Source: a virus
Reading direction: 5' to 3' (one strand)
Length of the DNA: 64,000 nucleotides
IMG/VR virus record: IMGVR_UViG_3300042888_002402
Shown: one piece after another, positions 36,477 through 56,364 of the stretch
Layout: every line of letters begins with the position of its first letter
Numbering within the stretch: the stretch's first letter is position 1
Position numbers and translations under genes: made by a program
Notes under the pieces: generated by a model
Told to the model about the DNA's origin: nothing
What the model saw: the letters and a program-made list of their open reading frames with translations, nothing else
Database searches by the model: none

Positions 36477-36907
36477 ATCCAGTGGAAGCAGTTGGAGTAT
36501 GGTTTTACTCCGCCAGTACTCAACGCTACTTGTACCTGTTGCGAAATGACATCAAGAACCCAAACACCTGGGGTTTGCCAGGCGGCAAAGTAGAAGACAG
36601 TGAAACACTTGTAGACTGTATTGTTCGAGAATGCAGTGAAGAATTAGGATCAATGCCCAATTATTTGCGATTGGTTCCATTGGAAAAATTTACAACTGTT
36701 GATGGAAAATTTGTTTACAACACATTTTTTTGTAGTGTTAAAAATGAATTTCATCCAATACTCAATGACGAACATGTGGGATGGGCCTGGATTGCTTCAG
36801 GCAACTGGCCTCGCCCAATGCATCCTGGGCTGTGGTCAACTGTAAATCTTGATTCAGTGCGTGATAAAATATCAACCATTGAACATCAAGTTCAAATATC
36901 GCAATAG
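36458..36907 (+). CDS. NUDIX hydrolase
   Basis: Nudix box GGKVEDSETLVDCIVRECSEELG. Confidence 0.9.
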   Translation: MESSVINPVEAVGVWFYSASTQRYLYLLRNDIKNPNTWGLPGGKVEDSETLVDCIVRECSEELGSMPNYLRLVPLEKFTTVDGKFVYNTFFCSVKNEFHPILNDEHVGWAWIASGNWPRPMHPGLWSTVNLDSVRDKISTIEHQVQISQ

Positions 36908-37554
36908 CCTATAAACTCTCTGTAGGTAAAATTATTTGCATTGGGTGCTTCCATCCATACATCTGGCATGTTGGTTTTTTCACCTATTAGATAAAATTTT
37001 ACGCCGGCATAAGCATCCATAACTTGCCTGATTTGGTTAAACCAGGTTGGTTGATCAACCGGAGTTTCGCGGTTGTATCCAAGTAAAAATATCTCTTGGT
37101 GTCCATCAAACGCAGCCAAATACAATAACAATGCTATGTCAAGTAATCTTGGTGCGTGAGGAATTAAATAAAATTCACCCGGATGCGTTATGCAATTCCG
37201 TGGTGTGGTGTAAACAATGTTGTTTTCTTGATATTTGGTAGGTAATATTTGAGACAATTTAGTTTTGTCTGACTCCACTGCAAAATCCAATCGCATGTCT
37301 TGTGTGATATTGCCAACTCCGTAGGTTTGTACTTTTTTTGATCCTAATAGGCCTCCACGATGGCGTTGTAATCGTGTGTAGTCAAATTGGGTTTGGTCAA
37401 AGTTGCTGCCAATGCAAACGGCACGTCCGGATATGTGCTGATTTTGAATAGGATTTTCAATCCACTCTCGTCGTTCAATTTTTTTGCCTTTGGCCCAGCG
37501 AGTTTCAAGTATAACAAATTCGCCAGCGTAATCTTGACGATATCTTGCTTCCAT
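36892..37554 (-). CDS. Divergent CstII/MAF(DUF115)-fold putative glycosyltransferase
   Basis: AVCIGS, LYLAAFDGHQEIFLLGYN; paralog of 52387..52974. Confidence 0.45.
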   Translation of the reverse strand: MEARYRQDYAGEFVILETRWAKGKKIERREWIENPIQNQHISGRAVCIGSNFDQTQFDYTRLQRHRGGLLGSKKVQTYGVGNITQDMRLDFAVESDKTKLSQILPTKYQENNIVYTTPRNCITHPGEFYLIPHAPRLLDIALLLYLAAFDGHQEIFLLGYNRETPVDQPTWFNQIRQVMDAYAGVKFYLIGEKTNMPDVWMEAPNANNFTYREFIGYCDI

Positions 37555-39401
37555 TATGTCCTGCCAACTGCAACTTCAATGGTGCCAATTTCTCCAGAGT
37601 CCCATTCTTCAAGTGCTTTGCCAATGATACATCCAGGTTGATATTGAGTAATGTCAAGTGGCCTAGCAACTCCGTCTATTGTGCTGGCTACCAATCTATC
37701 ACCTTTGTGTATGATTCCTACAACTTTGCAAGGAACTCTACCAGTCAGTGCAACTGCTGCAGTATATTCACTGCTCAGTGTTGAATTCATCAAGTAGGCG
37801 GGTTGTGTACTAACAATGCCAGCAACTTGTGTGTTATGGCTGCCCGAGCTAACAGTTATTTCGCGTGTGCCACCAAACATGACCACAGTGCCTGGCAAGT
37901 ATGTTGCATCTGCAGTATAGACTTCTGCCAAGTCAGCGTATTGTGCAGTGGTTGCTTTGGCAAATATGGTGTTGAAAGTGGCGCCGGCGGCGCCAATGTT
38001 ACCTGAACCTGATGTGGCACCGTTGGTGATTGCAGTAGTAGCATTGTTGATTGTGAGTCCAGATAGTGTACCGACACTTGTAATATTGGGTTGTGCAGCA
38101 GTGGTCACAGTACCTGCTGTGGTTGCACTGGCCACTGTACCCGATACGTTGACTGTGACTGCTCCAGTTGCACCGCTTACAGAAATGTTTGTACCTGCCA
38201 CAATGCTGGTAACACCAGTGTTGGTAATAGAAACTGCACCGGTTGCACTAGTATTTGTACTCAAACCAGAACTGGTTGTCAATGCCGTAACACCGGTATT
38301 AGTAAAGGTAACTGCACCAGTTGCGGCACTTACTCCAATACCTGTTCCTGCCACAGCCGAACCAACTCCAGTATGAGTGTGGTCTGCACGAGCATAACGC
38401 AAACTTGTACCAACTGTGTTGGTACCAATTGATGTTGGTGTTGCTGCACTGGCTTGTCCAATTACAAAAGCAGTGGTAGCTAATTGTGTGGTGTTTGTAT
38501 CTGCTGCTGCCGTGGCTGAACTTGCGTTGCCTGATACTGCCAATGAACCTAATGTACCAACTGAGGTAATATTGGTCTGTGCAGCAGTGGTCAATGTTCC
38601 TACAATGCTGGTGCCACTTAGGTTACCCGAAGTGATGTTGCCAGTAACTGCCAAAGCAGTCAAAGTACCCACTGAGGTAATGTTGGTTTGTGCCGCAGTG
38701 GTCAATGTTCCTACAATGCTGGTGCCACTTAGGTTACCCGAAGTAATGTTGCCAGTAACTGCCAAAGCAGTCAAAGTACCCACTGAAGTGATGTTGGTCT
38801 GTGCGGCAGTTTGTAATGCGCCAGTGACATTAGTGAATGTACCTGCTGTACCTGATACGTTACCACCGGTTATATTACCGGTAGCACTGATGCCACCTGC
38901 AGTTGCCCAAACATTGGCGGTATTATTGTACAACCAAGTGATGAACGGAGTGCCAATCGGACCCACTTCAATGCCGCCGCCGTTGGCCTGCGAGCTATTG
39001 GTTGCGTTATTGGCAAAGTTGATGGTCAAATCATTTGTGCTGACCACATTAGAATTAATAGTTGTGGTATTGCCGTTGACTTGCAAGTTACCAGCAATGA
39101 CCACTAGTCCATCTACGCCACCAGATGCATTCGGGTCAATGGTCAGGGTTGATCCAGATGATACAATGGTATTGCCACTGATGGTAAATCCACCAATTGT
39201 GGCAATTCCAGTAGTGCTGATATTGCCACCTGTGACATTGCCTACTGCACTGACATTTCCAGGAGTTAATAAATTTCCGCCCTGAACATTACCAGTGGCG
39301 CTGAGATTTGTTGGAGCAAATGCTCCGGTAATTGAAATATTATTACCAACAATATTACCAGTGGTTGATATTCCTGTTGTGCCGTCTAGTGTTAATGACA
39401 T
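37554..39401 (-). CDS. Tail fibre/appendage with a C-terminal Peptidase_G2-type intramolecular chaperone domain
   Basis: G/T/N/S/A repeats; YADLAE.Y...PGTVV.FGG...AGIVST.PA...VALTGRVPC.V.G...KGD.LV...IIGKALE. Confidence 0.8.
   Translation of the reverse strand: MSLTLDGTTGISTTGNIVGNNISITGAFAPTNLSATGNVQGGNLLTPGNVSAVGNVTGGNISTTGIATIGGFTISGNTIVSSGSTLTIDPNASGGVDGLVVIAGNLQVNGNTTTINSNVVSTNDLTINFANNATNSSQANGGGIEVGPIGTPFITWLYNNTANVWATAGGISATGNITGGNVSGTAGTFTNVTGALQTAAQTNITSVGTLTALAVTGNITSGNLSGTSIVGTLTTAAQTNITSVGTLTALAVTGNITSGNLSGTSIVGTLTTAAQTNITSVGTLGSLAVSGNASSATAAADTNTTQLATTAFVIGQASAATPTSIGTNTVGTSLRYARADHTHTGVGSAVAGTGIGVSAATGAVTFTNTGVTALTTSSGLSTNTSATGAVSITNTGVTSIVAGTNISVSGATGAVTVNVSGTVASATTAGTVTTAAQPNITSVGTLSGLTINNATTAITNGATSGSGNIGAAGATFNTIFAKATTAQYADLAEVYTADATYLPGTVVMFGGTREITVSSGSHNTQVAGIVSTQPAYLMNSTLSSEYTAAVALTGRVPCKVVGIIHKGDRLVASTIDGVARPLDITQYQPGCIIGKALEEWDSGEIGTIEVAVGRT
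38554..38810. repeat. 111-bp (37-aa) tandem repeat, about 2.3 copies
   Basis: Unit TAAQTNITSVGTLTALAVTGNITSGNLSGTSIVGTLT; GTACC anchors at 38554, 38665 and 38776. Confidence 0.85.
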
Positions 39402-39431
39402 GTCGTGTATCCTTTATCTTTTATATTTATG

Positions 39432-40700
39432 TTAAAAAGACCCAAGTATGTACAGTGTGGAATCATCAGGAATTGTTATATTATACCCAGGAGCAATGCT
39501 AACTGGTCCAAATAATACTGCATTTGTGTTGTCCGCAGTAATAACGTTAGAACTAAGAGTCTTTGGTGTTGCAAACGAACCATACATGCTCAGTGCACCT
39601 GTGCTGATAACCACAGTGTTACTTTGAGCCTGCACACTCATGGCAATGTTTCCACTGGCCACAGGTATGCTGATGTCAGTGGCGCCGTTGGCAATTTGAC
39701 TAGCAGATCCTGCATTAAGTCCAGTGATGTATATGCCATTACCGTACAGATAATTACCAATTACATTTCCGCCAGTGATGTTGCCAGTTGCGCTGATATT
39801 TCCAGCAGTTAAATTACCACTGAATGTTGGTAGGTAATTGGCCACATTGGCATTGCCATATGTTGCTGGCAATCCACTTAAAAATGCTCCATTTCCAAAA
39901 ATATAACTGCCAGTGATATTACCACTGACTGATACATTGCTGGGCAAACTAAATGTCACTGTATCTGTGGCAGTTATGGCAACATTCACTTGATTAGCAG
40001 TTCCGACAAGACTTAGTGTTCCATCCAATGCCAATGCAGTGGTATTGCCGCCATCACTAATGGTAAGGCCACCTGAAATAAATCCATCCACATAAGCTTT
40101 AGTAGCTGCATCTTGAGCAGCCACTGGGTCACTTACATTGTTGATCCAATTGTTGCTAACATTGATATTACCAGACGCTACGGACAACACTCCAGAAACA
40201 TACACACCAGTATTGGCCACGGTTAGCACATTGGCAGTTCCAGCAGAACTTATGGTTACGTTGGCATTTGAATTGACCACAACATTACTGGTGCCGCCAC
40301 TGATACTGTTGGCCATGTAGTTCTGCGTAAAAGTTAATGCAGTGGTACCTATAGTAATGGGGTTATCAGTGATTAATTTCCATTGAGTATCTGCATAAAC
40401 TACACCTTCGGTGACCATGATCACAGTACCGGCCAGCAGTTCTCCAGTTTGATTGTTGTCGTTGGATCGCACCCAAGTACCGTTTGATCCAGATCCCAGG
40501 GTATCAACGTAGTAAATGCCATTTTGGCTGGCAGTGGTTTGACCAGTGACCAACACGCGGTCGTTATTACTGAGAGTAACTCCATCAACTTGACTGGGGG
40601 CACCGCCTGACAAGGTGATATTTGCAGTCGTGACCACACGAGTTGCTTGTTTGTAATCTATGTCATAAATCTGTTGTGCACGAGGTCTGGTTAAGCCCAT
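39432..40700 (-). CDS. Tail fibre-like protein
   Basis: DGVTL...DRVLV..Q.....NGIY.....W.RS.D domain; QDAATKAYVD motif. Confidence 0.75.
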   Translation of the reverse strand: MGLTRPRAQQIYDIDYKQATRVVTTANITLSGGAPSQVDGVTLSNNDRVLVTGQTTASQNGIYYVDTLGSGSNGTWVRSNDNNQTGELLAGTVIMVTEGVVYADTQWKLITDNPITIGTTALTFTQNYMANSISGGTSNVVVNSNANVTISSAGTANVLTVANTGVYVSGVLSVASGNINVSNNWINNVSDPVAAQDAATKAYVDGFISGGLTISDGGNTTALALDGTLSLVGTANQVNVAITATDTVTFSLPSNVSVSGNITGSYIFGNGAFLSGLPATYGNANVANYLPTFSGNLTAGNISATGNITGGNVIGNYLYGNGIYITGLNAGSASQIANGATDISIPVASGNIAMSVQAQSNTVVISTGALSMYGSFATPKTLSSNVITADNTNAVLFGPVSIAPGYNITIPDDSTLYILGSF

Positions 40701-40729
40701 TGTTGTTCCAATTGTATCATATATTTAGT

Positions 40730-40759
40730 AAAAAAAAATAGGACCCGAAGGTCCTATTT
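40730..40759 (-). terminator. T4-type cUUCGg terminator followed by TAAATA (40722-40727)
   Basis: ATAGGACC-TTCG-GGTCCTAT plus T-tract on the minus strand. Confidence 0.9.
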
Positions 40760-40774
40760 GTAAGTGCTGGTAGA

Positions 40775-43700
40775 TTAGAGTCTACCAACAACCACTTCGA
40801 TTATACCAGATTCACCGTTGAAGTTTTCCAGTGCTTTACCAATCACAGTGCCCAGTGTTGGATTGGCTTCTGCACGAGCTTGCCCATTACCAGCTGATAC
40901 CATCATGTCACCTTTGCGTACAGGACCAACAACGCTACACGGCACACGACCTGTTAGTGCTATCATAGCAGTGAATTCACTGTGCAATCCAGAATTCATG
41001 CTATAAGCAGGGTTTGTAGATACCACGCCAGCAATGCGAGGATCTGCATCTGTGTCGCTTAGTGTTATCTCATTGTCACCGCCAAAACTTACAACAGTTC
41101 CAGGTTGATATTCTGCATCGGCTGAATATTTCTCTGCCAAGTCAGCGTATTGTGCAGTGGTTGCTTTGGCAAATACTGTGTTGAAACCTGCACCCGAAGC
41201 ACCAATGTTGCCGCTGCCAGCAGTACCACCATTGACAATTGCAGTAGCATTATTGTTGGCATTAACAGTGATTGCACCACTAACTGTAAGTGCAGTTAAT
41301 GTACCAACACTTGTGATGTTGCCTTGTGCTCCTGTGGTCACTGTGCCTGCAGTGGTTGCACTGGACACTGTGCCTGATACGTTGGCGCCTGCCACTGCAT
41401 TGGCAGTTGTTGCAAAAGCCACTGCACCTGATACGTTACCGCCTGGAATACTTGTTAATCCTGCACCAGATCCATTGAATTGTGAGCCAGTCACTTGACC
41501 AGTTACACTAACAGTAGTACCTGTATGATTGGTAGCTGATACGTTACCACCAGTTATGTTGCCAGTAGCACTGATGCCACCTGCAGTTGCCCACACATTG
41601 GCGGTATTGTTGTACAACCAAGTGATGAACGGTGAACCAATTGGACCCACTTCAATACCACCACCATTGGCTGCGGCACTGTTAATTGCATTGTTAGCAT
41701 AGTTGACTGTTAAGTCGTTAGTGCTAACCACATTAGAGTTAATGGTTGTGGTGTTGCCGTTCACTTGCAAGTTGCCTGCAATCACCACTAGTCCATCTAC
41801 ACCACCAGATGCATTTGGATCAATGGTCAGTGTTGGTCCAGCACTCACAATTGTATTAGCACTAATTGTAAATCCGCCTATGGTAGCAGTTCCTGCAGTG
41901 CTTAAATTACCACCTGTGACATTGCCTGTTGCACTAACAGTAGCACCATTGAGTACTGCGCTTGCATTACCAATTGTGGCAGCATTAACAGTGGCTGCCG
42001 ATACAGTGCCTGTTACAGCCAAACTACTTAACGTACCCACAGAAGTAATGTTTGTTTGTGCGGCTGTTTGTAGTGTACCTGTTAGTGTTGCACCTGAATT
42101 ACCAATTGTGGCTGCATTAACAGTGTCAGCAGTTATAGTGCCTGTGCCAGATACAACACCTGACCCAAATATCACATTGCCACCTGTGACATTGCCACTT
42201 GTGCTGATAAAACCAGAGCCTGCTGACAAGTTGCCACCGGTTACAGTGCCGTTTGCTTGTACAGTGCCAGCAACACTTACTCCAGTTGTGGCAATAACTG
42301 CCACATTTGGTGTGCCGCCAACTCCAGCAGTTATACTGCCATTGCTGGTTGCTATAGTGACATTACTTGTGCCATTGCTGATTGCAGCAGTGTTGAGTCC
42401 AACCACATTGGCGCCATTGATACTGGTCAATGCATAGCCGTTACCTAGTATATAACTACCACTTATGTTGCCATTGGCAGTGATTGTGCCTATTACGCTG
42501 ACACCTGTGGTAGTTGCAGTCAGCACGTTGGCAGTGCTGTTTACTGTGATAAATGCATTGCCATTGGTACCACGGAATCCTAAACTGCTGGTGCCAGCAG
42601 TGATTGAACTGACGTCAATGTTCCCAACTTCCAGCGTGGCAGGAGTTGTTCCGTCGCCTTCTAACACAGCAAATGTGTTTCCTGTGGCTTGTAATTGCAA
42701 GCCACCTAGATAAATGGTGTTGCCTGACACATACAAGCTCTGCCATTGATTGGTTGCATTGCCCAAGGTCTGTAACACATTGGATGTTGGGATCAAATTA
42801 CCAGTTACGTTAACTTGAGCAAGCGTTGGATCAGCAGCCACCACACCAGAGTCGTTGGAGTTTGTGATTGAGCTGACAGTGGTTGTGGTTGTGATTCCAC
42901 GCACATCAATTGAGTCACCAGGCTCTGGTGCTTCAGTGAATGTGAGTACACAGGTCGGGTCCACACCTGACACAGAATACGCAGTGGTCGGAATCTGCAG
43001 CACACCATTGATACTGACAATAACACTGTTGGTTGTTTGTGTGCTGTTTAATGTGAACGCTACAGTTGATCCATCACCGGTAAACTGTTGGTCGTCAACA
43101 ACTGTGAATACAGTTGAGCCAACACTTTGCCATTCAGTGTTGTTGTAAATTTCCAAACTGTTGGTAGTGTTGTTAAAACGCAACATACCAGTGACACCAG
43201 TTGATGGACGTTGATTTGTGTTACCAACCGGAGCAAGAATAGAAGTACTCGAGTTAAATGCCGCTATGGCATTTACAGTTTGTGTGCTTGAACCAAAACT
43301 GGCTGAGTTACTAGTGGCACTCACATAAAACACATTGGCCGCAGTGCCGTTAACAGCAAAATCCACTGTGTTTAGTGCAGAATTAAAGTTGACTCTACCA
43401 TTACTTACGCTTGTTATGTCGTTGCCAGTGGAACCGCCTATAATAATATTACTTCCAAAAACATTGCCTGCACGGACAGCATTATTGAGTAAGATATTGC
43501 CAGCATGCACATTGCCTGTAACACTGACATTGGCTGGCAAACTAAATGTCACTGTATCTGTAGTGGTAATCTGAACGTTGACTTGATCAGCAGTTCCAAC
43601 CAAACTTAGTGTTCCATCCAATGCCAATGCAGTGGTGTTGGCACCATCACTGATTGTGATACCGCCTGAAATAAAGCTATCCACATAGGCTTTGGTGGCT

Positions 43701-46486: not shown

Positions 46487-46560
46487 GGCTTGATTACTCC
46501 ATTATCATGAAGTATTTACCAAAATATCAAATTTTGATAGTTAGTGGTGATTATTTGTGT

Positions 46561-47592
46561 CTATAAAAAGCGAACGTCTATTGCGTCGCCAACAGAAGGC
46601 GCTTCTGAAAACACCAGATTTGCACTAGGATCCGGTGACATTGAGTAGGCAATTCCGGGTATCTGCACCACACCATTGAGCATGATCAGTGCAGCAGCTG
46701 AACTTGTGCTTTGTGTTAATGTAAAAGTATTTTGCACACCGTTGCCGTACAGTGTTTGATTTGTAATGGTTGGTGCACCCACTGTGGCCCAGGCATTTCC
46801 ATTATAAATTTCAACTGCTGGAGTATCAGTGTTATATCTTATGGTTCCTAACGTTGCCGGGTTTGGTTGTTGTGCAGTATTTCCTACCGGAATAACCAAA
46901 CCTGTTGTGGTATCTATTGTTATTAATCCTGTTCCAGTGGGTTGCAAAGTAATAGTAGCATTGGCAACACTGGAACTGATTGTGGTATTGCTAAAGGTAA
47001 TATTCCCAGTGTTGCCGCCCACACCAAATTGGCCCACGTATCTATAGCCCACAATGTACACTGCTTTGCCAGCGACGCCACCACTTATAGATGCTGGTAT
47101 TGTGGCTCCGTTAAAGTTTAAAATACCAGCTTGATAGTCAAAAAACCAAGTGTCGTCTGAGCCGGATCCAGCTTGGAACAATCTGGTGCCGGTGGTTTGT
47201 GGAGTGGTAGATCCTACGTTATCCACATAAACTGATACCAGATAGTTGGTGCCAAACTGTGTGGGTATCCAGTTGGTTAAATTGGTTTTCCAAGTTTGAT
47301 TGTCAGGTGCAGTTAAATCTTCTGTGCATTCTACTGTGGGGCTATATCCACCACCACCACCGTCTTTGTAAACTTCAACCAAAGAAGTAGTGTTGCTGGG
47401 TGGTGAACTAGGAATGTCACCACTGTAGGTCCAGACCAGGTCGCCGCGATACAGCAACGGACTGGCTATGCTTTCGTTAAACGCTTCTTTACTGCCCGAA
47501 CCCGGAGGAGGTATAGAAGTTTTGGCCACACCGTAACCAACTTTTTTCCAGAGATAGTCTAGTTTTTGACTTTCGTTAAATGAAGCAGCCAT
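46561..47592 (-). CDS. Fibre/baseplate-associated structural protein
   Basis: WFFDYQAGILNF; GLVIPVGNTAQQP..GTIRYNT and a C-terminal domain shared with the 1903-aa and 137-aa proteins. Confidence 0.65.
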   Translation of the reverse strand: MAASFNESQKLDYLWKKVGYGVAKTSIPPPGSGSKEAFNESIASPLLYRGDLVWTYSGDIPSSPPSNTTSLVEVYKDGGGGGYSPTVECTEDLTAPDNQTWKTNLTNWIPTQFGTNYLVSVYVDNVGSTTPQTTGTRLFQAGSGSDDTWFFDYQAGILNFNGATIPASISGGVAGKAVYIVGYRYVGQFGVGGNTGNITFSNTTISSSVANATITLQPTGTGLITIDTTTGLVIPVGNTAQQPNPATLGTIRYNTDTPAVEIYNGNAWATVGAPTITNQTLYGNGVQNTFTLTQSTSSAAALIMLNGVVQIPGIAYSMSPDPSANLVFSEAPSVGDAIDVRFL

Positions 47593-50500
47593 TATACAGC
47601 ATCTCCTATTGAAAGTGCAGTAATGGTTTGTCCACTACTCAATGCTATACGAACTAGGATATTATTACCTGTGCTGTTGCTTGAATTTTGTTCTCCCAGT
47701 GTCATGGTATAGCTCACATTGGCAATGGCCGAGTTAAGTGGTACAACATCAGCACCAGTCAAGGCAACACCGTTGCTGCCATTGCCTCCAGAGCCTGTGT
47801 TTGCCCCAGGAACGCCCGACCCGTTGTACTGTAGTGAGCAACTCAACCAACCGTTGAGACTACTTGTTGGGCCTGGAAAACCCGGTGTAGGTGTGCTAAA
47901 TCCACCGGTGTCAATTGTGGTACCCGGGGCTGCAATGAAAAGGCCTGCGATACCTGTAGTGGTTGTGAGCCTAATATCAAAGTTGGCCATGGTGGCTCTG
48001 CGGAAGGCAAAAGTGAAATATTGTAGCCCACTGCGACCTGTGGCTAGGTCTGGCCCTACAGGCAAATATCCGGTGGATAAGTCTGTAACATAATGTCTAA
48101 CTACACCATATCGGTCAACTGCATCTTGGGTGCCGGCAATAGTTTGAACCCCGGTCCAGACATTTCCGGTATAATAATTGGTGCTGCCATCGAATGCAGG
48201 TGTGTTGCTGGCAGCACCAAAGCCAGTTATTCGTAAAGCGTTGTCAGTATAAACAGATCCCAACGTGGCACTGACTGCAATGTTGCCTTCACTGATGCCA
48301 GTGTTGGCAGTGGCATTGACCTGTATCTTGGTTGGCAATTGCACTGTGGTGCTAGTCCCAATCACGTTGAATATGTTGGCACCTACGTTGGCCACAGCGT
48401 TGACTGCTCCGTTGATTAGAACATTAAGATTGCCCATTACATAGTTTGATGCAATGCCTATGTTGGCATTGACATTGCTGCCGGTTAACATACTAGATGT
48501 TCCGTTGATCTGCGTTAAATTTTTGGTTTGTGCGGCAATGATTGATCCAGAACCTTCTATAGCCGAACCAGCACTCAATGTCATTGGATCAGCACTGCGG
48601 AAAGTTTGACCAGTAAAATTCTGTAATTCTACCGTGGCCACAGTAATGCTTGGACTACCTGTGGCACTGTAATATGGTATTCCTGAAATATAAGTGAAAG
48701 TCCCGTCGACATTGCCCACCATGACCACGTTGCTGGTTACCAGAGTAGGTGCAGAATTTAAATTGTCTTTGACCATGCCCACTGTATTGGTATTGCCTGA
48801 TACTGTGTGTCTCAGTTGGAAATCGTTGTAACCAGTGCCCAAGCTGGCCAGGGTATTGCTGATGGTAGCAGAAAATACCTTGTAAAATCCTGTGGGCACT
48901 GCGGCGTTGGCCACATGTAGATCGCGGTCAGCTGACACAATCAATGCGCCTGCTGTGCCCACTGTGTTTCCACTCGTGGTAAATGTCACATTGCCAGCGG
49001 CTGTGTTGTTGACAAAGGCAGTCAATGTTCCTGTGGTTGCGGTGTTGGCATTTTGAACCTGTGTGCTGGTCGCAACTGGAGTAGTAGTGGCCACACGAAT
49101 CACAGATGTACCATTGGCCACAATGTTGCCACCGGTGTTGTCGGCAGCACCGGCCGCTAGTAGCGGACTAGTTCCTTGACTGGCTGTGGTAATGGTCACA
49201 TTGGTATAACCACTGAGATTGGTTGGTGCAGTAGGATTGTCTAAAATTGTGATATAACTGGTTCTAGTCTGCGTATTGCTCTGTGATATAGTTCCTGGAG
49301 TTCCATTGGCCTGTAGTGCTACTGTTTTAGTTCCAGTAGTTGGAGATCCCACTGCTGTTAGATAAGAATGTGTGACGTTGGCAAACGTTATAAGGCCAGT
49401 ATTGCTGGTAGTATCGCCCCAGGTCCAGTTGAATACATTTCCAGTAAAGGCCACATTGGGCGAGGTATCGTTGCGGAAGTTGAATAAACTTCTATCAAGG
49501 CCATTGTAGTCAGTGTATAGATATCCAACCTGTGCGTTGGATGTAAATCCAGTGGCATCAGTCTGTGTGTTACTGGTTCCCACAAAACCAGCTCTGACTT
49601 CTGGTTCTAGTGAAATAGTCACATTGCTGGACTTGAATGGGCTGGTGCTGAAGCCGGTATATAGCCAAAGATTTGCCACACGGTTCACTGTGGTTGCAGC
49701 ATTTTGTTGTGATCCAGTAAGAGAAAAAGTATGTGTAATATTGGCTGCACCAGGATTACCTGCTAGTCCAGTCTGAATATTGATGTTACTGTTGGCTGTG
49801 CTGTCGCCCCATTGGAAGTTATACACCTGTTGAGCACCAAAGCTGGCTGTGTTACCAGGACTGCCAGGTGTTTGATTTTGAAAACTTACCACACCGCCCG
49901 ACGTGGCCAAGTAGTTGATTGTGGTTGCAACATTGGCTGCTACCGCTGGACTCTGTGGTGAATAAACTTTGACATTGGTATTGGCCGATGTGACACTGTA
50001 AGGTGGTGCATTACCGGCTGTTTGATTTGTGCCTGTTAAATTGATTCCGTAAATGGCATCTGTGTTGGCAGAGTTAACATAGGTATGACTATTGGTGGTA
50101 AAACTATTGCCAGGGTCAACAATATTGCCATCACCATAGTTGATCGAATAAGATGTAGCAAACTGGCTGGTGTTGGTCAGTGTTACACTGCTACCGGTGT
50201 CCAGGGTTGTTGGGCTTGCAGTAAATGACGGGATTGGTAACGGTGTAAACAGAGTGATGAAATCAACATTAGTTGATGTGGCCGTTGATCCTTTGGCACC
50301 GGCGGCAGCATTGCCACTGTAGGTACCATTGGTGTTGTAGGCCGTGTAAACCACTGTGAATTGTCCACCAAGCACATTGCTATAGGTGTGTGTTGGATTG
50401 GCCGAGGTACTGGTATTACCGTCACCAAAATTCCAAAGATAACTGTTGGGGTTACCAATGTAGTGTCCAGTGAATGCCACACTCAGTGGACTTGGTCCTG

Positions 50501-51008
50501 AAGTTACATTGGCAGTGATATAGACATTACCTACAAATGTATTTCCGGCAATATTTAAACTCACTTGGTTGAGATCATCTATACTGTCTGTGACAAAAGT
50601 GTTGGCAGTCCATCCAGGATATGCTACGTTAGTGGTAAGACTACTGTCACTAGGAATTCCCAATGGAATAAGATTGCCTGTTACATTGCCACTGACACTG
50701 CTTACCACATGATCTACATAGTATTTTGTTGCGGCATCTTGGTTTTGTACAGGATCAGTTAGATTGTTGATGTAGACATTGCCTACACTGACATTGCCAA
50801 CATTGGGTATAGTGATATTGCCCACAGTGATATTGCCTGCAACTTGAAGAGCAGTAGACGGGCTACCAGTATTAACACCTATGCGATTATTGCCAACGTC
50901 AATGTATAAAACGCTGCCAGAAGTAGAGGTATTGGAGAATGATAGATTGTTGCCATCTCTATAGAGATTGGCCTGAAGCATTTGACCCGCAATACGACTA
51001 ATTGACAT
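47592..51008 (-). CDS. PKD-domain virion protein
   Basis: SGPSPLSVAFT...SYLWNFGDGNTSTSANPTHTY and further WGD/YGDG PKD repeats. Confidence 0.8.
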   Translation of the reverse strand: MSISRIAGQMLQANLYRDGNNLSFSNTSTSGSVLYIDVGNNRIGVNTGSPSTALQVAGNITVGNITIPNVGNVSVGNVYINNLTDPVQNQDAATKYYVDHVVSSVSGNVTGNLIPLGIPSDSSLTTNVAYPGWTANTFVTDSIDDLNQVSLNIAGNTFVGNVYITANVTSGPSPLSVAFTGHYIGNPNSYLWNFGDGNTSTSANPTHTYSNVLGGQFTVVYTAYNTNGTYSGNAAAGAKGSTATSTNVDFITLFTPLPIPSFTASPTTLDTGSSVTLTNTSQFATSYSINYGDGNIVDPGNSFTTNSHTYVNSANTDAIYGINLTGTNQTAGNAPPYSVTSANTNVKVYSPQSPAVAANVATTINYLATSGGVVSFQNQTPGSPGNTASFGAQQVYNFQWGDSTANSNINIQTGLAGNPGAANITHTFSLTGSQQNAATTVNRVANLWLYTGFSTSPFKSSNVTISLEPEVRAGFVGTSNTQTDATGFTSNAQVGYLYTDYNGLDRSLFNFRNDTSPNVAFTGNVFNWTWGDTTSNTGLITFANVTHSYLTAVGSPTTGTKTVALQANGTPGTISQSNTQTRTSYITILDNPTAPTNLSGYTNVTITTASQGTSPLLAAGAADNTGGNIVANGTSVIRVATTTPVATSTQVQNANTATTGTLTAFVNNTAAGNVTFTTSGNTVGTAGALIVSADRDLHVANAAVPTGFYKVFSATISNTLASLGTGYNDFQLRHTVSGNTNTVGMVKDNLNSAPTLVTSNVVMVGNVDGTFTYISGIPYYSATGSPSITVATVELQNFTGQTFRSADPMTLSAGSAIEGSGSIIAAQTKNLTQINGTSSMLTGSNVNANIGIASNYVMGNLNVLINGAVNAVANVGANIFNVIGTSTTVQLPTKIQVNATANTGISEGNIAVSATLGSVYTDNALRITGFGAASNTPAFDGSTNYYTGNVWTGVQTIAGTQDAVDRYGVVRHYVTDLSTGYLPVGPDLATGRSGLQYFTFAFRRATMANFDIRLTTTTGIAGLFIAAPGTTIDTGGFSTPTPGFPGPTSSLNGWLSCSLQYNGSGVPGANTGSGGNGSNGVALTGADVVPLNSAIANVSYTMTLGEQNSSNSTGNNILVRIALSSGQTITALSIGDAV

Positions 51009-51040
51009 AGATTATCCTGGTGATAAGGTATTTAGCGAGT

Positions 51041-51454
51041 TTATAAATTGGTTTGAATCACGTTGATCACTGTCAGATCTGGTGGTGCCGAAGTAAATAT
51101 TATGTCATAACTGCCATTGACTGTGTATGCAGCTGGTGTACTGTTGCCGCCAGGTGTTTGATAAATTGATCCAACAAACACAATAATTTGTGCCGGATCA
51201 GACACTTGCTGGGTCATTGTGTATGTTGTGGTAGAACCATCTCCAGTGAAATTATCAACTGTGTAAATTGATCCTGAATTGCTTAACAAATACAACCATT
51301 GAGTGCCATCAAAATATTCCACTGCAGGAACTGTGGTGTTGTAACGTATGGTGCCAAAAAATGGGTTTTCTGGGCGGTTGGTAGAAGTTCCTGTAGGTAA
51401 TACCACTCCGGTGCTGCCAGATTGCAATTGCCGATTTTTGACAAAATATCCCAT
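51041..51454 (-). CDS. Small fibre-associated structural protein
   Basis: LPTGTS..RP...GTIRYNT and FTGDGSTT domain. Confidence 0.65.
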   Translation of the reverse strand: MGYFVKNRQLQSGSTGVVLPTGTSTNRPENPFFGTIRYNTTVPAVEYFDGTQWLYLLSNSGSIYTVDNFTGDGSTTTYTMTQQVSDPAQIIVFVGSIYQTPGGNSTPAAYTVNGSYDIIFTSAPPDLTVINVIQTNL

Positions 51455-51771
51455 TATATTGAAGTGTATGAAGTTACCGCAGTCACTGTGTTAGCAGTGG
51501 TTATTACCTGTACAAAATCTCCTGTTTCTAACAATAACTTTTCTCCAGCAGCATAAATTTGGTAAGTGTCTCCACTGGCAAGTGGCAAAGAATACAGAAT
51601 TTGATTACTAGTTGTTGCAGTATCGCCGTTTGGCACCACAAATATGTTGGCAGTCACATTTGCAGCGCCCCAATTGTTTAAACTCAGCCAGGTAATGGCA
51701 GTGTTGCTGCCACTGGTGTAAACCGTATTACCAACTACTGTGTTGCTGATTACTTGTGTTGTTATTGACAT
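51454..51771 (-). CDS. Small beta-sandwich structural protein
   Basis: 105 aa with the EKLLLETGD motif, in the fibre operon. Confidence 0.6.
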   Translation of the reverse strand: MSITTQVISNTVVGNTVYTSGSNTAITWLSLNNWGAANVTANIFVVPNGDTATTSNQILYSLPLASGDTYQIYAAGEKLLLETGDFVQVITTANTVTAVTSYTSI

Positions 51772-51780
51772 TTTTGTTCC

Positions 51781-52383
51781 TTAAAATATGATTGCAAATA
51801 CAATGGCTGCACTCTTGCTAACCAGTTCGTCATTGACAGAACTTGACAACACGTAAACACCTGTGCCACCTCCTCCAATGGTATTGTTGTAAAGAGCCAC
51901 TGCATTTGATGGAACGCTGGGTGCAGCGCCAATGTTGCCTAGCACTTCGGTCCCTTGAATTTTTAGCACATTGTTTGCATAATCAAAAGTCAAATTGGCA
52001 CTGGCACCAAATGAGTTACCTTGATTAAATTGAACTTGTGTGTTGGAACCACCAACCACGACAGTACTTGTGCCAATGTTGGCATAACTTGTTACTGCAG
52101 ATCCATCTGAGTTTACTGCATTACTAATCTGCCAAGCATTGGCAGCAGTATCAAATCTTAATCCAGCAAAGGTGCTAGGACCTTTTTGTGCTATCAGTCC
52201 CATGTCTGTGATATTGCCAGTGTTGTTGGCTGCCACAGTAAAGAAGGCAAAGGTACTAGTAGCTGGTATAGAATAAGTAACATTGCCATTGAACACAGTG
52301 TTTGCATTGACCGTGAAAGTGCCCACGCCGTTGTTGACAGTTAGGGTGTAATCACTGTTGGTATTTTTGTAAGCAATAGACAT
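51781..52383 (-). CDS. Fibre-associated structural protein
   Basis: GGSNTQVQFN....FG.SANLTFD motif. Confidence 0.6.
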   Translation of the reverse strand: MSIAYKNTNSDYTLTVNNGVGTFTVNANTVFNGNVTYSIPATSTFAFFTVAANNTGNITDMGLIAQKGPSTFAGLRFDTAANAWQISNAVNSDGSAVTSYANIGTSTVVVGGSNTQVQFNQGNSFGASANLTFDYANNVLKIQGTEVLGNIGAAPSVPSNAVALYNNTIGGGGTGVYVLSSSVNDELVSKSAAIVFAIIF

Positions 52384-52386
52384 TGG

Positions 52387-52974
52387 TTATAGATCCTTTT
52401 GATTATTTATGCGGTCTACAAAGGTGTCTAATTCATAGTGTTGTAGATTTTTTAATGTTTCAAGCTCAGGTATACGTGCAGTGGTTGGGCCCGCTATTCT
52501 ATAAAATTGATTTTGTGGATAATCAGTGATAATTTTGGTCAGTTGTTTCGTCCAATTTCCAACAAATGTTGGCGGTGCTCCTGCTGGTTTGTAAAATTCT
52601 GTGTTGGCGTAGATATTGTTAAAGTGTTTGTTGAGGTCAGGTCCCATGTCAAAGCCCAGCAGGTAAATTGATCTAGCACCGTTTTGACAGGCAACCGCCA
52701 CTGCAATTGGACCGGAACTGTATCCATAATACTGTTGTGGTACAGGAAGACCGCCTTGACCAGCTATGGGTTTGCGAGTGTAAAAATTGTTGGTCAACGC
52801 ATATCCTGTTTTTTGTATTTGTTCAGCAATGGGCTTATCTGTGGCAATTAGCGCATCCGGAGCAAATTCTTTGTAGAGTGCATTACACCCGTAGATTTTC
52901 CCACGTTGTTTCAAATACGGTAAACTGATATTCCGTCGGCTTACGCCATTTCCTAATACAAATGCCACAGTCAT
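52387..52974 (-). CDS. CstII (GT42)/MAF-DUF115-like glycosyltransferase
   Basis: AFVLGNGVSR, IYGCNALY and SSGPIAVAVA..GARSIYLLGFD parallel the CstII motifs IIAGNGPS, FRCNQFY and TSG...AVAIALGYKEIYLSGID. Confidence 0.6.
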   Translation of the reverse strand: MTVAFVLGNGVSRRNISLPYLKQRGKIYGCNALYKEFAPDALIATDKPIAEQIQKTGYALTNNFYTRKPIAGQGGLPVPQQYYGYSSGPIAVAVACQNGARSIYLLGFDMGPDLNKHFNNIYANTEFYKPAGAPPTFVGNWTKQLTKIITDYPQNQFYRIAGPTTARIPELETLKNLQHYELDTFVDRINNQKDL

Positions 52975-53008
52975 AAAAAATCCCCACAGTACTTATTGTG
53001 GGGATTTT
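52975..53008 (-). terminator. Terminator hairpin after the 260-aa gene
   Basis: AAAATCCCCACA/TGTGGGGATTTT stem; the T-tract runs into ATG 52974. Confidence 0.7.
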
Positions 53009-53024
53009 AGAGTTGTTACAAAAA

Positions 53025-53807
53025 TTACGAAGTGTAATTTTCTACAATACCAAGATCGAGTGTACCACCAGCATTTTGCTCACTGCCGTTGGCGCCCCAG
53101 GTGGCTGTTTCTGCACCAGATTTGGCAACTGTGCCTTCGTCGGTGAAGAAGTTGGCATCAAGTACCACGTTGTCAACAACCAGATCAGAATCCCAAACAT
53201 CGCCTACATCAGCATTACCACCTGTGCAACCACCATCAAAGTTCTGCAAGAACTTGTTGGTCAGTTTGCTGACAGCTACTTCTGTGGAATCGCCAAGGAA
53301 GTAACTGATACTCATGTTGCCTGCAGAGGGCGATAAATCGCTGGTTAGCACACATGTTCCAACAGCGTTGACACGACCTGTGCCTGTGCTGCCAAGAGCA
53401 GCAGTGGCTGTAAAGATTGTGCCAACCTGTGCAGTAGGAGCACCGTAGCTGGCCCAGTCTGTGTCGCCTACCACAGTGATACGGTATGCAAATCCAGATA
53501 CCAGGGCAGTTCTGGAAGTTATATCAGCTACCATAAATTTACGTGAACCTTTTTGGCGCAAAATAACACCATCTGCTTCAGCAAACCCTGTGACAAACAC
53601 ACGACATTTTACAACTGGATATGTGGTGCTTACATCTGTACCACGTGTACCTCCAACCACACCCAGCCACAGTGGATTAGTGCCGCCGGTTGGATATACC
53701 ACAGTGGCCACGTCCATTGAAGTTGGTGCTGCAAATGGAGGATATGCCTGATCTATTGGAGTAGATGTAGATGTATTATATTTTTGAATTTTTAGTGGAC
53801 GTCCCAT
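53025..53807 (-). CDS. Hypothetical structural protein
   Basis: MGRPLK start, ILRQKGSRKF motif, strong AAGGAG SD, late promoter. Confidence 0.65.
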   Translation of the reverse strand: MGRPLKIQKYNTSTSTPIDQAYPPFAAPTSMDVATVVYPTGGTNPLWLGVVGGTRGTDVSTTYPVVKCRVFVTGFAEADGVILRQKGSRKFMVADITSRTALVSGFAYRITVVGDTDWASYGAPTAQVGTIFTATAALGSTGTGRVNAVGTCVLTSDLSPSAGNMSISYFLGDSTEVAVSKLTNKFLQNFDGGCTGGNADVGDVWDSDLVVDNVVLDANFFTDEGTVAKSGAETATWGANGSEQNAGGTLDLGIVENYTS

Positions 53808-53811
53808 TTTG

Positions 53812-53906
53812 TTTTCTCCTTAAAGAAGCCCGATGCGGGTTCTAGCCGCTACGCTGTGGGTGTTGAGTCCCAGCATAAAACGCATGATTGCGTTGACTTG
53901 TATTTA
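53812..53906 (-). promoter_or_regulatory. Late promoter plus structured 5' leader RNA (candidate cis-regulatory element)
   Basis: TAAATA at 53901-06, then three consecutive hairpins and an anti-SD segment. Confidence 0.5.
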
Positions 53907-53952
53907 TGGTGATGTAAATATTTCCACAGTCAGCTAGAAAATTAAATATATC

Positions 53953-55101
53953 ATGGAAACAGAACTACTAATAGCTCACGGTAATCAATGCCGTGAAGAC
54001 AACAACCCGGAACAGGCATTGGCCTTTTATGCACAGGCATTTACACAAGATCGACGTTTGGCCAGTGCATTCAACAACTACGGCAATGTGCTAAGAGAAT
54101 GTGGTGATCCTGCTGGCGCCATACCATTTTTACAACGTGCCACACAATTGGATCCTGCAAATGTCACTGCAAAATTCAATTTGTCAGTGGCATATCTGTT
54201 GCAGGGTGATTATAAACAAGGATGGCCTGCCTACGAAGTTCGCTGGCAGTACGAACATCTAAACGGACAACTTCCAAAACATTCACAGCCTAGATGGGCT
54301 GGCCAGGATATTCGAGATAAAACCATACTGATCATCGCTGAACAAGGTCACGGTGACAATATTCAATTTATAAGATTTGTTGGAGATGTTTACGCTCGTG
54401 GCGCACGAATCATTATGCAATGCAATGCAAGTTTGATCCCATTGTTTCAGGGCAGCCAGGCTATTTCTGAATTTGTTCCATCTGACATGGAACCCACTGG
54501 GTTTGATTACTGGACTCCAATTATGAGCATTCCTAACATAATTAATACCACATTGGAAAATTTAACTCATGTGCAATTTTATGTAACTCCAGACGCAAAT
54601 CTTGCACAACAATGGTTGAAAATTCTTGGACCCAAAACTAAACTACGTGTGGGATTTTGTTGGTCAGGACGTAGAGACACCTGGATTAATCGACACAAAG
54701 GCATGCCATTTGAAGTCATGGTCGAATTGATCCAACGCAATCCCAACTACGAATGGATCAATTTACAGTGTGATTGCACTGCAGAAGAAGAACGTGCCTT
54801 GGTTGATATTGGTGTACGAGCATATCCTGGATCAATTCGTAACTTTGCAGACTCAGCTGCATTGATACACAATCTTGATGTTGTGCTCAGTGTGGATACC
54901 GCAGTGGCTCACTTGGCAGGAGCATTGGGTCGTCCTGTATGGGTCATGTTGAACTGGTTTGGTACCGATTGGCGTTGGTTGCTTGATCGCGATTCAAGTC
55001 CTTGGTACTCAACTGCCAGACTGTTTCGGCAGCCTCGAATGGGCGATTGGAATTCAGTAACCGATAAAATACACAAATTCCTTGGCTGGTTTAAGATTTA
55101 A
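53953..55101 (+). CDS. TPR-repeat protein fused to a GT-B glycosyltransferase (GT9/heptosyltransferase-like)
   Basis: TPRs (AFNNYGNVL, AKFNLS..L), EQGHGDNIQF.R, DLV/VLSVDTAVAHLAGALGRP, DWRW, PWYS..RLFRQ. Confidence 0.8.
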   Translation: METELLIAHGNQCREDNNPEQALAFYAQAFTQDRRLASAFNNYGNVLRECGDPAGAIPFLQRATQLDPANVTAKFNLSVAYLLQGDYKQGWPAYEVRWQYEHLNGQLPKHSQPRWAGQDIRDKTILIIAEQGHGDNIQFIRFVGDVYARGARIIMQCNASLIPLFQGSQAISEFVPSDMEPTGFDYWTPIMSIPNIINTTLENLTHVQFYVTPDANLAQQWLKILGPKTKLRVGFCWSGRRDTWINRHKGMPFEVMVELIQRNPNYEWINLQCDCTAEEERALVDIGVRAYPGSIRNFADSAALIHNLDVVLSVDTAVAHLAGALGRPVWVMLNWFGTDWRWLLDRDSSPWYSTARLFRQPRMGDWNSVTDKIHKFLGWFKI

Positions 55102-55167: not shown

Positions 55168-56364
55168 TTAGGAGAATGAAAGATTTTGTACAGCAATTTC
55201 GCCAACATAGTCAGCTGCATTACCGAACGAACTGGCAGTGTTGGTCAATTCAACAAAACCATAACGAGTCATAAATGACACGACTGGTTCGAATGTTGAT
55301 GGATCCAACACAACACCACTGCTCATCAACGGAATGTATGGGCAATAGAATGCTGCGGCATCAGCCTCAGAAGTACCTTTATAACCAACCAACACAGCTT
55401 GTGTGTCCTGTGCATAGCTGTTTACAAACACACGCATAGCACCATTCAATGTACCAACAAACTTGGTGTTTGTAGGTGCTTCAAATGTGCCTTCTGTTGT
55501 GCGAGCAAATGCACTAGTTGTTGCAGATTGCAACACTGTCAGACTTGCTGGACTCACAACGCACCAGTTACCAGCGCCACGACGTGTACGCTGAGCAATC
55601 AAGTTGGCAACACGATTGATCAAAACTGCCAATGCGGCATGTTCGTCACCAACGAATGTTGCAGTACCTGACACAGTAGCTTGATTGTATGTGAACTCTG
55701 TAGCTGCAAGTGTTTGCAAGCTTAAGAGAATCTCTTGGTCAATCTCAGCAGTGATCTCTTGTGCAAGAGCTGCCATGATTTCTGCTTCAACGTCAATACC
55801 GTGCATGGCCTGTGCGTCTTGTGCAGATTCAAATGTCCAACGTGCTTGCAACTTACGTGTTTTGGCTTCCACGGCTTGTTTCAAGATCTGAACAGAAATT
55901 TGCTTACCGCCTGTACCTTCCATGATTGCTGTATTGTTACCAGTATAACCAGTAGCAGTAGTAGTACCTTGTGGAACTGTAGAGTATGCAGTAGCAATTG
56001 TGAATGGACTCAATGCCTCTTGGCCAGCGGACACGCTGGTTGCAGCCAATGAGTTATCAGTCAAAGACTGAGCATAACGCACACGCAGAGTGTGAATTTG
56101 ACCTACTGGACCTGTCATTGGCTGAACGCCTACCAACTCGTTAGCAATAACTGTTGGCATAACACGTCGAATCACTGGAAGAATCACACGGTTTAATGTG
56201 GCGATATTTCCAGATGCAGTAGAACCTGAACTTGCGTTCTCACGCAAATACTTTTTGGTATTTTCGAGGATAACGCTCATTGAAGTACGCTTTGAACCTT
56301 GCAGGCCTTCTAGCAATGCTTCTTTGGTCTCGTTCCAACGACCTTCTAATAATTCCTGTGACAT
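55168..56364 (-). CDS. gp23: Major capsid protein
   Basis: RRVMP..IA.ELVGVQPMTGP.GQI..LR, AKTRKL.A.WT.E.AQD, EIDQEI, TRRGAGN, FYCPYIPL, F.P...FMTRYG. Confidence 0.97.
   Translation of the reverse strand: MSQELLEGRWNETKEALLEGLQGSKRTSMSVILENTKKYLRENASSGSTASGNIATLNRVILPVIRRVMPTVIANELVGVQPMTGPVGQIHTLRVRYAQSLTDNSLAATSVSAGQEALSPFTIATAYSTVPQGTTTATGYTGNNTAIMEGTGGKQISVQILKQAVEAKTRKLQARWTFESAQDAQAMHGIDVEAEIMAALAQEITAEIDQEILLSLQTLAATEFTYNQATVSGTATFVGDEHAALAVLINRVANLIAQRTRRGAGNWCVVSPASLTVLQSATTSAFARTTEGTFEAPTNTKFVGTLNGAMRVFVNSYAQDTQAVLVGYKGTSEADAAAFYCPYIPLMSSGVVLDPSTFEPVVSFMTRYGFVELTNTASSFGNAADYVGEIAVQNLSFS

Follow-up and report, generated by a model that had tools for sequence, protein, structure and literature searches.

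A minimal Maf/CstII-type glycosyltransferase core at the fibre cassette of a T4-like jumbo phage and its possible role in virion O-glycosylation

Described glycosylation systems and the phage locus

The closest described counterpart of the phage genes considered here is Maf, a soluble cytoplasmic enzyme that modifies Ser/Thr residues of a surface filament protein, flagellin, before its assembly. Work cited in PMC7591256 credits Maf enzymes with the transfer of Neu5Ac as well as Kdo to Ser/Thr. In Shewanella, Maf-1 uses its own TPR domain and Maf-2 needs a separate specificity factor, GlfM (bioRxiv 10.1101/2023.12.03.569772). In FlmG of Caulobacter crescentus it is the TPR domain to which flagellin binds, and a GT domain by itself does not suffice (PMC7591256). 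As for phages, phage-encoded virion glycosylation has been reported in mycobacteriophages (Freeman 2023, as cited in PMC12619734), and our literature searches found no paper on Maf, GT42 or DUF115 enzymes acting on phage virions. Here we describe a locus in 64,000 nucleotides of viral DNA (IMG/VR record IMGVR_UViG_3300042888_002402; this whole stretch is referred to as the window) in which two paralogous genes of the Maf/CstII type flank a fibre cassette and a gene joining TPR repeats to a GT9-like domain lies beside the capsid gene. We call these genes MafA (52387-52974), MafB (36892-37554) and TPR-GT9 (53953-55101), and the gene directly upstream of MafA h260 (53025-53807). An earlier interpretation, made from the DNA letters and hereafter called the sequence-only reading, had proposed that the phage decorates its own virion with glycans made by these enzymes; the open reading frames (ORFs) that it named all exist where it placed them.

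The window belongs to an uncultured freshwater jumbo phage of the T4-like kind and encodes a gp23-type major capsid protein (MCP), large terminase, sheath, gp15, UvsX, UvsY and gp32. The cultured capsid proteins closest to its MCP, which come from Vibrio phage 2.275.O, PA5oct and Sinorhizobium phage Phosso, share only about 65% identity with it, and near-complete uncultured relatives in IMG/VR, 317-347 kb in size, have MCPs 89-96% identical to that of the window. One relative, G002, is collinear with the window. The comparisons below cover five near-complete relatives, ten long loci, 32 loci for the placement of TPR-GT9, and deeper branches in which the MCP is 77-84% identical. Homologues number about 1,700-1,800 each for MafA and MafB and more than 7,600 for TPR-GT9, typically at 60-75% identity.

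Compared with bacterial Maf, the phage proteins are short (195 and 220 aa versus 632 residues) and fall below the PF01973 threshold, the place of flagellin as acceptor would be taken by a virion protein, and no phage donor pathway was found in the relatives. In mycobacteriophages, too, glycosyltransferases encoded by the phage are thought to act on proteins of its own virion. As far as the citing source describes them, the mycobacteriophage enzymes belong to other families and their targets are the C-termini of capsid and tail-tube proteins, whereas here we deal with T4-like jumbo myoviruses of probably Gram-negative hosts, and the proposed targets are fibres or h260. We regard as solid the fold and motifs of MafA, the finding that MafB is dispensable and probably a pseudoenzyme, the core formed by h260 and MafA, and the rejection of the argument from glycosylation sequons. 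Judged by fold and gene neighbourhood, O-glycosylation of the virion by these enzymes is plausible, although we would put its chance at somewhat below even.

MafA and its paralogue MafB

MafA (52387..52974, minus strand; P0003, 195 aa) is a minimal but intact representative of the Maf/CstII (GT42-like) glycosyltransferase superfamily, a bare catalytic core with donor-site motifs. Its AF2 model (pLDDT 92.8) aligns in VIA-align with Maf of Magnetospirillum (5mu5) at Z 12.3 and rmsd 3.5 over 165 residues, and with CstII/Cst-I at Z 9.8-10.0 and rmsd 3.5-4.3 over 155-175 residues, covering model residues 1-193; the model has the single-Rossmann GT-A-variant fold that characterises CstII. In Foldseek the top matches of the MafA and MafB models alike are Maf 5mu5 and CstII/Cst-I (E ~1e-4), MafA matching the CstII fold at E 2e-4 and TMq 0.55. 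Maf is the best structural match, by way of its central catalytic domain (residues ~253-513, of which 272-513 are covered). MafA aligns solely to this domain of the 632-residue Maf chain and at 195 aa does not include the acceptor-binding domains that flank it on the N- and C-terminal sides.

At the level of sequence, PDB searches with MafA or MafB as a single sequence or a shallow profile returned no match, and a deeper profile was needed to reach GT42. This profile (A3), made from 72 diverse members of the MafA family that are 27-57% identical to MafA, has PDB matches to GT42 sialyltransferases with E values from 3.3e-8 to 7.6e-7, which is the sole significant sequence link. The motifs GNGxS, CN..Y and SG...A...IYLxGxD align between the A3 profile and CstII or the Pasteurella sialyltransferase, and MafA itself carries GNGxS, CN..Y and SSG..A...IYLLGFD. 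Residues G8, N9, G10, S12, C30, N31, S86, S87, G88, G107 and D109 of MafA are invariant or nearly so, and nine residues (N9, G10, R13, C30, N31, G88, G107, D109 and Y128) are invariant over the diversity of the family. MafA also matches phrog_4603, annotated 'alpha-2,3-sialyltransferase', at E 4.5e-7. Pfam families are reached by part of the family: 13 of the 72 diverse members match PF01973 (at E of at least 3.6e-4) and 11 match PF06002 (best E 8.6e-5). The MafA of the window has no PF06002 match at E<=0.01, neither MafA nor MafB of the window matches PF01973 or reaches its gathering threshold, and the G002 orthologue of MafA scores 14 bits against a PF01973 cut-off of 34.6. With the known GT42 enzymes, CstII/Cst-I of C. 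jejuni (1ro7, 2p2v) and the lipo-oligosaccharide (LOS) sialyltransferase of Pasteurella multocida (9c08), MafA shares aligned motifs and a fold (Z ~10), but its identity to them is 14-19% (Foldseek, VIA), and those enzymes act on lipo-oligosaccharide, not on protein. Characterised members of the Maf/CstII superfamily take CMP-activated donors.

MafB (36892..37554, minus strand; P0002, 220 aa) has the same fold as MafA with an added N-terminal beta-hairpin. BLASTP relates the two at E 3e-5 (23% identity over 120 aa) and profile-profile comparison by hhalign (A2 versus A3) at 99.1% probability, E 4.4e-19 and 164 columns; by these sequence comparisons MafA and MafB are true paralogues. The AF2 model of MafB (pLDDT 80.1) aligns with Maf 5mu5 at Z 12.0 and rmsd 3.7 over 179 residues, again in the central domain up to residue 513, and with CstII at Z ~8.7, and the hairpin also aligns to Maf and MptE. 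The sequence-only reading had described paralogous CstII/MAF-fold genes that flank the fibre cluster on the same strand, the one at 36892-37554 being coupled to the last fibre gene. This description stands in full; the start codon of MafB and the stop codon of the gene for the 615-aa fibre share base 37554. The two proteins part ways in the active site, however: the predicted glycosyltransferase fold is recovered for both models, but MafB is without the catalytic signature. In the profile alignment it keeps one of the nine residues invariant in the MafA family, only the Gly matching G107. Among the substitutions from MafA to MafB are N9 to S, G10 to N, R13 to Q, C30 to V, N31 to G, G88 to D and D109 to N, and the NNxYAGTxxY loop of MafA is deleted. 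Because just one of the nine invariant residues is retained, MafB is probably a conserved, non-catalytic paralogue. Its homologues are 64-97% identical to it, constant in length and on average 74% identical per column, and it is under purifying selection despite the lost catalytic signature.

Since the fold is shared with other enzymes, one has to consider that MafA and MafB might not be glycosyltransferases but fold-mates of pyrophosphokinases or SteA, with MafB, and perhaps MafA, acting as a chaperone of fibre assembly or as a minor component of the structure. VIA does align them with MptE HPPK and thiamin pyrophosphokinases (Z 8.0-8.6 for MafA, 8.5-10.4 for MafB) and with the SteA regulator (Z 8.1 and 9.6, respectively), and PF01973 is named after MptE. 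However, the kinase matches span 116-131 model residues, compared with 155-175 for CstII/Cst-I, and the A3 profile reaches significantly only GT42 in PDB (E 3e-8 to 8e-7) and no kinase. For MafB the chaperone idea is helped by the missing catalytic signature and by a gene position typical of tail-fibre assembly genes, after the last fibre gene and coupled to it. Yet MafB is missing from two loci, L072 and L111, whose last fibre shares the C-terminal domain of the 615-aa fibre (55-62% identity), so that MafB cannot be an obligate chaperone of that domain, and gp360 of PA5oct, which occupies the same position as MafB, is unrelated to it. Overall, we consider a role outside glycosyl transfer for the pair improbable.

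Gene neighbourhood and the question of the acceptor

The most constant companion of MafA is h260 (53025..53807, minus strand; P0514, 260 aa), a candidate acceptor or adaptor. The MafA gene begins 50 nt past the h260 stop, and the two genes adjoin in every relative examined except for a few loci. The N-terminus of h260, MGRPLK, is invariant, and the blocks GVVGG, RQKGSRKF, LTNKF, NFF.DEG and ENYTS are conserved; an optional insert of about 60 aa is missing from deeper relatives. Searches of Pfam, PHROGs, NCBIfam and Atlas gave no family match for h260 (Atlas score 0.78). The gene order scaffold, MCP, TPR-GT9 (on the opposite strand), h260, MafA, small S/T-rich proteins and variable fibres is found in all ten long loci, TPR-GT9 being placed between MCP and MafA in 29 of 32 loci, and in all five near-complete relatives (317-347 kb) the strand that carries MafA also carries MafB, 10-16 kb further downstream. 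In deeper branches (MCP 77-84% identical) TPR-GT9 is not present at the site, and an h260-like gene and MafA persist. The invariant unit is h260 followed by MafA, usually with a divergent TPR-GT9. The MafA/MafB bracket seen in the window is a feature of a sub-lineage in which MafB is optional.

TPR-GT9 (53953..55101, plus strand; P0004, 382 aa) is predicted from Pfam, Atlas and its orthologues to combine TPR repeats with a GT9-like GT-B glycosyltransferase, and its gene is convergent with that of the gp23-type MCP (55168..56364, minus strand; PF07068, E 1.7e-96). A TPR-GT9-like gene beside the capsid gene had been noted from the sequence, and the family searches agree. TPR families match at E down to 4.9e-9 (TPR_2) over residues ~14-100, which would hold about 2-3 repeats, and the match to Glyco_transf_9 (PF01075), confined to residues 298-329, scores 23.1 bits where the cut-off is 22. 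ESM-Atlas features score 0.97, with GT9 clusters making up 25 of 30 matches, and suggest a GT9-like domain at ~100-382. Orthologues in all five relatives pass the GT9 cut-off, and GxGDxIxF and DT..(H)L..ALG are invariant motifs of the family. The A4 profile, built for TPR-GT9, meets WaaC in PDB at a non-significant E of 0.63 through the DT..HL..AL motif only. GT41 (PF13844) is not matched at E<=0.01 by the protein or anywhere in the five relatives, and OGT matches in PDB are restricted to the TPR part, residues 12-100. With FlmG and O-GlcNAc transferase (OGT)-type enzymes the protein shares, by architecture alone, an N-terminal TPR part and a C-terminal GT-B domain; it differs in its size of 382 aa with about 2-3 repeats and in being GT9-like (the heptosyltransferase family) rather than GT41. 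The GT9-related enzymes TibC and AAH, which transfer heptose from ADP-heptose to Ser of repetitive beta-helical autotransporter adhesins, differ (by description only) in having no TPR.

Between h260 and TPR-GT9 lies a divergent intergenic region of 145 bp (53808..53952) with TAAATA on the plus strand at 53915-53920, 38 nt 5' of the TPR-GT9 start, and ATAAATA on the minus strand at 53902-53908. The sequence-only reading took the former for a late promoter. The motif is indeed there and it is enriched, occurring 19 times, mostly before structural genes, in the 80 nt upstream of 59 genes against 1.6 expected (12-fold); the canonical T4 late motif TATAAATA is not enriched, being at chance level upstream of genes (4 versus 3). 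The lineage appears, judging from these motif counts, to use a shortened late-promoter core. ATAAATA also stands 29 nt upstream of the 615-aa fibre gene and 27 nt upstream of the gene for a 200-aa small protein. Across the window TAAATA, often as ATAAATA, is found 9-40 nt (mostly 23-32) before about 18 genes, for example those at 24265-27585, 37554-39401, 40775-46486 and 59370-61190.

Glycosylation of the phage's own virion remains the most economical reading of this locus, because of the transferase folds, the late virion gene context and a layout that is conserved in relatives. MafA would O-glycosylate Ser/Thr residues of outer virion proteins (fibres and/or h260) in the cytoplasm before assembly, much as Maf does with flagellin. 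Its donor would be a host-made CMP-sugar, either CMP-Kdo or a nonulosonate, a donor class suggested by those of its relatives that belong to GT42 and Maf; most Gram-negative bacteria produce CMP-Kdo. Because MafA has none of the acceptor-binding domains of bacterial Maf, the acceptor would presumably be chosen by another protein. In the sub-lineage of the window this adaptor could be MafB, a dead paralogue translated together with the last fibre, which would parallel GlfM as the separate specificity protein of Maf-2, except that GlfM is a four-helix bundle and not a dead paralogue; more generally, the adaptor could be h260. TPR-GT9 might then be a second protein glycosyltransferase, its TPR arm holding a virion protein in the manner of FlmG or OGT and its donor possibly being host ADP-heptose. 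It is tempting to go further and picture a widespread freshwater T4-like jumbo lineage of about 340 kb with a self-contained O-glycosylation module, composed of TPR-GT9, h260, a minimal Maf core and an optional dead MafB adaptor, that draws on host CMP-Kdo or nonulosonate and ADP-heptose and modifies fibres and/or capsid. In so complete a form, however, the proposal is rather unlikely.

A number of observations weigh against virion glycosylation. The HMM alignment puts T/V138 of MafA opposite His188 of CstII, which from the CstII literature we take to be the catalytic general base, and by this profile alignment only there is no His at that place; H179 of MafA is nearly invariant in close homologues and not in the wider family. 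The putative GT9 assignment of TPR-GT9 draws on a 32-residue Pfam match and language-model features. In the five relatives we found no NeuB (PF03102), CMP-Kdo/nonulosonate synthetase (PF02348) or GmhA (SIS_2), and a PfkB kinase in two of the five; as donor-synthesis genes are missing from the relatives, the host would have to supply any donor sugar. Six related loci whose sequence crosses the far boundary of the cassette (L009, L010, L021, L052, L072 and L111) have no MafB between their last fibre and the Nudix gene. In L009 and L010 a lone 91-aa ORF with 31% Ser/Thr stands where otherwise the whole 10-16 kb cassette and MafB separate MafA from the Nudix gene, and TPR-GT9, h260 and MafA persist with collinear flanks (L009:4629-5912). 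Therefore, the bracket of two Maf-type genes around the fibres, as described in the sequence-only reading, is not a fixed system, the more so as MafB is without the catalytic signature. Likewise, since L009 and L010 keep MafA, h260 and TPR-GT9 without the cassette, the variable fibres cannot be the sole target; the fibre genes of these two loci must lie elsewhere, or else the contigs must be collapsed assemblies. The examples of MafA beside fibres belong to a single broad lineage, whose MCPs are at least 77% identical, and a search with a distant family member for independent Maf-fibre adjacency yielded deeper branches of the same lineage and one non-fibre context. In cultured phages, members of the MafA family are confined to Pelagibacter myophages and do not lie beside fibres. 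Pelagibacter phage HTVC008M has three Maf-like genes (L106:752-4983; see also L081:7995-8825), all annotated as hypothetical, two of them flanking a NolO-like carbamoyltransferase and 2OG-Fe(II) oxygenases and one lying between uvsY and uvsW. Similarly, a tandem pair of Maf-like paralogues of 223 and 190 aa, which share about 32% identity with MafA, sits among accessory enzymes rather than fibres in IMG/VR 3300021959_010708 (L114:5028-6265). The MafA family is thus also used outside fibre cassettes.

These contexts bear on the alternative that the transferases are real but their acceptor is not part of the virion: a host envelope glycan (LOS, lipopolysaccharide (LPS) or capsule), a free or lipid-linked phage glycan or a small molecule, the locus being simply the flank of a recombination hot-spot. 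The best sequence matches agree with such an acceptor, as LOS or LPS is the normal substrate of GT42 enzymes (CstII, Cst-I and the Pasteurella sialyltransferase) and of GT9 heptosyltransferases, and so does the company of the HTVC008M and L114 members, which includes the NolO-like carbamoyltransferase, 2OG oxygenases and radical-SAM genes in place of fibres. The persistence of MafA where the cassette is nearly absent points the same way. On the other hand, the TPR arm of the GT9-like enzyme argues for a protein partner, given the FlmG precedent. The genes also belong to a late virion block with TAAATA, and at that stage remodelling of the host surface would be of little use to a lytic phage. 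The strict pairing of h260 with MafA and the translational coupling of MafB to a fibre gene likewise speak against a non-virion acceptor, as do TPR-GT9-like genes beside virion genes in four other annotated phages. In view of this balance, we hold a non-virion acceptor to be somewhat unlikely, and virion glycosylation stays our preferred reading.

The gene context of the GT9-like domain in other phages is in fact a better independent support for virion glycosylation than that of the MafA family. In annotated phages, homologues resembling TPR-GT9 adjoin virion genes in four of five cases. The podovirus MW202512 (44 kb), unrelated to the phage of the window, has a 525-aa TPR plus GT9-like gene three genes after the capsid gene, followed by an FkbM-family methyltransferase and a galT-like gene (L109:2541-7768). 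The freshwater cyanophages BUCT-ZZ01 and S-SRM01 carry such a gene directly after their tail-fibre genes, and the Rhizobium phage RHph_X2_30 near its tail-assembly genes. If virion glycosylation holds true, it would extend from mycobacteriophages to very abundant aquatic jumbo phages and might be a general property of large aquatic phages whose hosts are probably Gram-negative. MafA and MafB would represent a new enzyme-pseudoenzyme pair, and a 195-aa minimal protein glycosyltransferase of Maf type with its natural pseudoenzyme partner could serve as an engineering scaffold. Host range, resistance to recognition by hosts or grazers and particle stability would all be affected.

Fibre cassette, sequons and sugar genes

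The fibre cassette between MafA and MafB measures 14.8 kb. At its head, directly after MafA, are three small conserved S/T-rich proteins of 137, 105 and 200 aa (51041..52383, minus strand), the first of their genes beginning 4 nt beyond the MafA stop; their order is kept in all ten loci, although the 105-aa gene is detected in five of the ten. They are followed by four variable fibre or structural genes for proteins of 422, 1903, 343 and 1138 aa (39432..51008, minus strand), with PHROG matches to tail-fibre, head-decoration and virion-structural families. A PKD domain is present in the 1138-aa protein, and PKD_4 (E 1.6e-8) and Phage_T7_tail (25.5 bits) are matched among the four, whose sequences contain 22-25% S/T and 7-12% N and are poorly conserved among relatives. 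The last gene encodes the 615-aa fibre (37554..39401, minus strand; P0001), which contains tandem GN[IVL][ST] units and, at residues 198-284, exact duplicates, and whose C-terminal domain (468-613) is conserved. This domain is 30-43% identical to gp359 of PA5oct and to proteins of Phosso, Agrobacterium phage Atu_ph07 and Campylobacter phages, gp359 being a virion protein annotated 'ESI-MS/MS'; by sequence comparison it is a conserved fibre-end module.

The sequence-only reading had drawn on the density of N-x-S/T sequons in these proteins and, by analogy with HMW1C-type enzymes, on their possible cytoplasmic N-glycosylation. Its hand count, five of the first nine Asn of the 615-aa fibre within N-x-S/T, is correct, and the density is real: the eight cassette proteins, which contain about 11% Asn and 24% Ser+Thr, have 3.4 sequons per 100 aa compared with 0.88 elsewhere. 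Within-protein shuffles leave an excess, 166 sequons in the pooled cassette against 123.5 expected (O/E, observed over expected, 1.34, z 4.4), with 28 against 14.3 in the 615-aa fibre (z 4.6). However, 40 of the 166 fall within G-N-[IVL]-[ST]. Once these units are deleted, 128 sequons stand against 113.7 expected (O/E 1.13), compared with 1.19 in the background of the other 51 ORFs, and the forward count of 128 hardly differs from the 127 found in reverse. Since the excess disappears with the units, it comes from a structural repeat. In the 615-aa fibre, exact tandem duplicates account for 7 of the 28 sequons. A residue-pair scan of the cassette gives GN as the strongest dipeptide (2.3x, z 10.5), followed by N before V, I or L (1.6-2.1x), and the underlying tandem unit of 5-6 residues is (S/T)(A/G)GN(I/V/L)(S/T), as in TGNITGGNVSGT. 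The sequon signal is a structural fibre repeat plus composition and no evidence of glycosylation; more generally, a high density of N-x-S/T in phage fibres can stem entirely from composition and the GN[IVL][ST] repeat and should not be taken as a sequon signal.

Thus, N-linked glycosylation of the fibres is unlikely, and its specific version, in which a cytoplasmic enzyme of HMW1C/NGT type, with the TPR-GT protein as the candidate, modifies N-x-S/T sites, is highly improbable. Apart from sequon density, this version could appeal to N-x-T, which exceeds composition 1.5-fold, to the preference of NGT enzymes, built of an all-alpha domain and a GT-B domain, for N-x-T, and to PA5oct, which by tblastn has neither transferase family and whose structural proteins show a pooled sequon O/E of 1.06. 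Yet N-x-S is only 1.09x over composition, and x limited to I, V or L with Gly before Asn describes a structural repeat of 5-6-residue period; one PA5oct fibre reaches an O/E of 1.94 without these enzymes, and the GT domain of the TPR protein scores as GT9. The known products of Maf, GT42 and GT9-type enzymes are O-linked or glycan-linked. The Asp-Ser-(Ala/Asp) tag is not enriched in the cassette either, with 11 DS against 15.7 expected. If virion O-glycosylation were to involve any residue of the repeat, it would be the Ser/Thr after the aliphatic residue of G-N-[IVL]-[S/T].

Further sugar-related genes lie at the periphery (1816..3287, minus strand; phrog_7878 is matched within this region at E 4.8e-29). 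They comprise a GT8-like gene (1816-2502; PF01501, E 3.1e-7) and a nucleotidyltransferase resembling HldE domain II fused to a cupin (2499-3287; PF01467 and PF01050, with TIGR02199 at E 5.9e-21, which is below the TIGR02199 cut-off). The fusion is unusual, as it joins a nucleotidyltransferase like heptose-1-phosphate adenylyltransferase to a C-terminal cupin of mannose-6-phosphate-isomerase type. A coherent glycan pathway at 1-10 kb, as initially suggested, does not follow from these genes: in the window the GT8-like gene, the nucleotidyltransferase-cupin and methyltransferases are interleaved with UvsX, UvsY and gp32, and in G002, where these sugar genes are not syntenic, the nucleotidyltransferase is about 64 kb away from the GT8-like gene.

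The same part of the window contains a segment of low GC content (0.30 at 8001-10000 compared with about 0.43 elsewhere) that holds two ORFs on the minus strand, 8260-9213 and 9215-9943, situated between UvsX and gp32. Their products have 9.5-10% Asn and no family match, and the segment is probably a recent acquisition inserted between these two genes. Finally, the radical-SAM protein encoded at 14724-15893 (minus strand) has its SPASM iron-sulfur domain (residues 7-70) N-terminal to the radical-SAM core (113-254), a reversal of the usual order.

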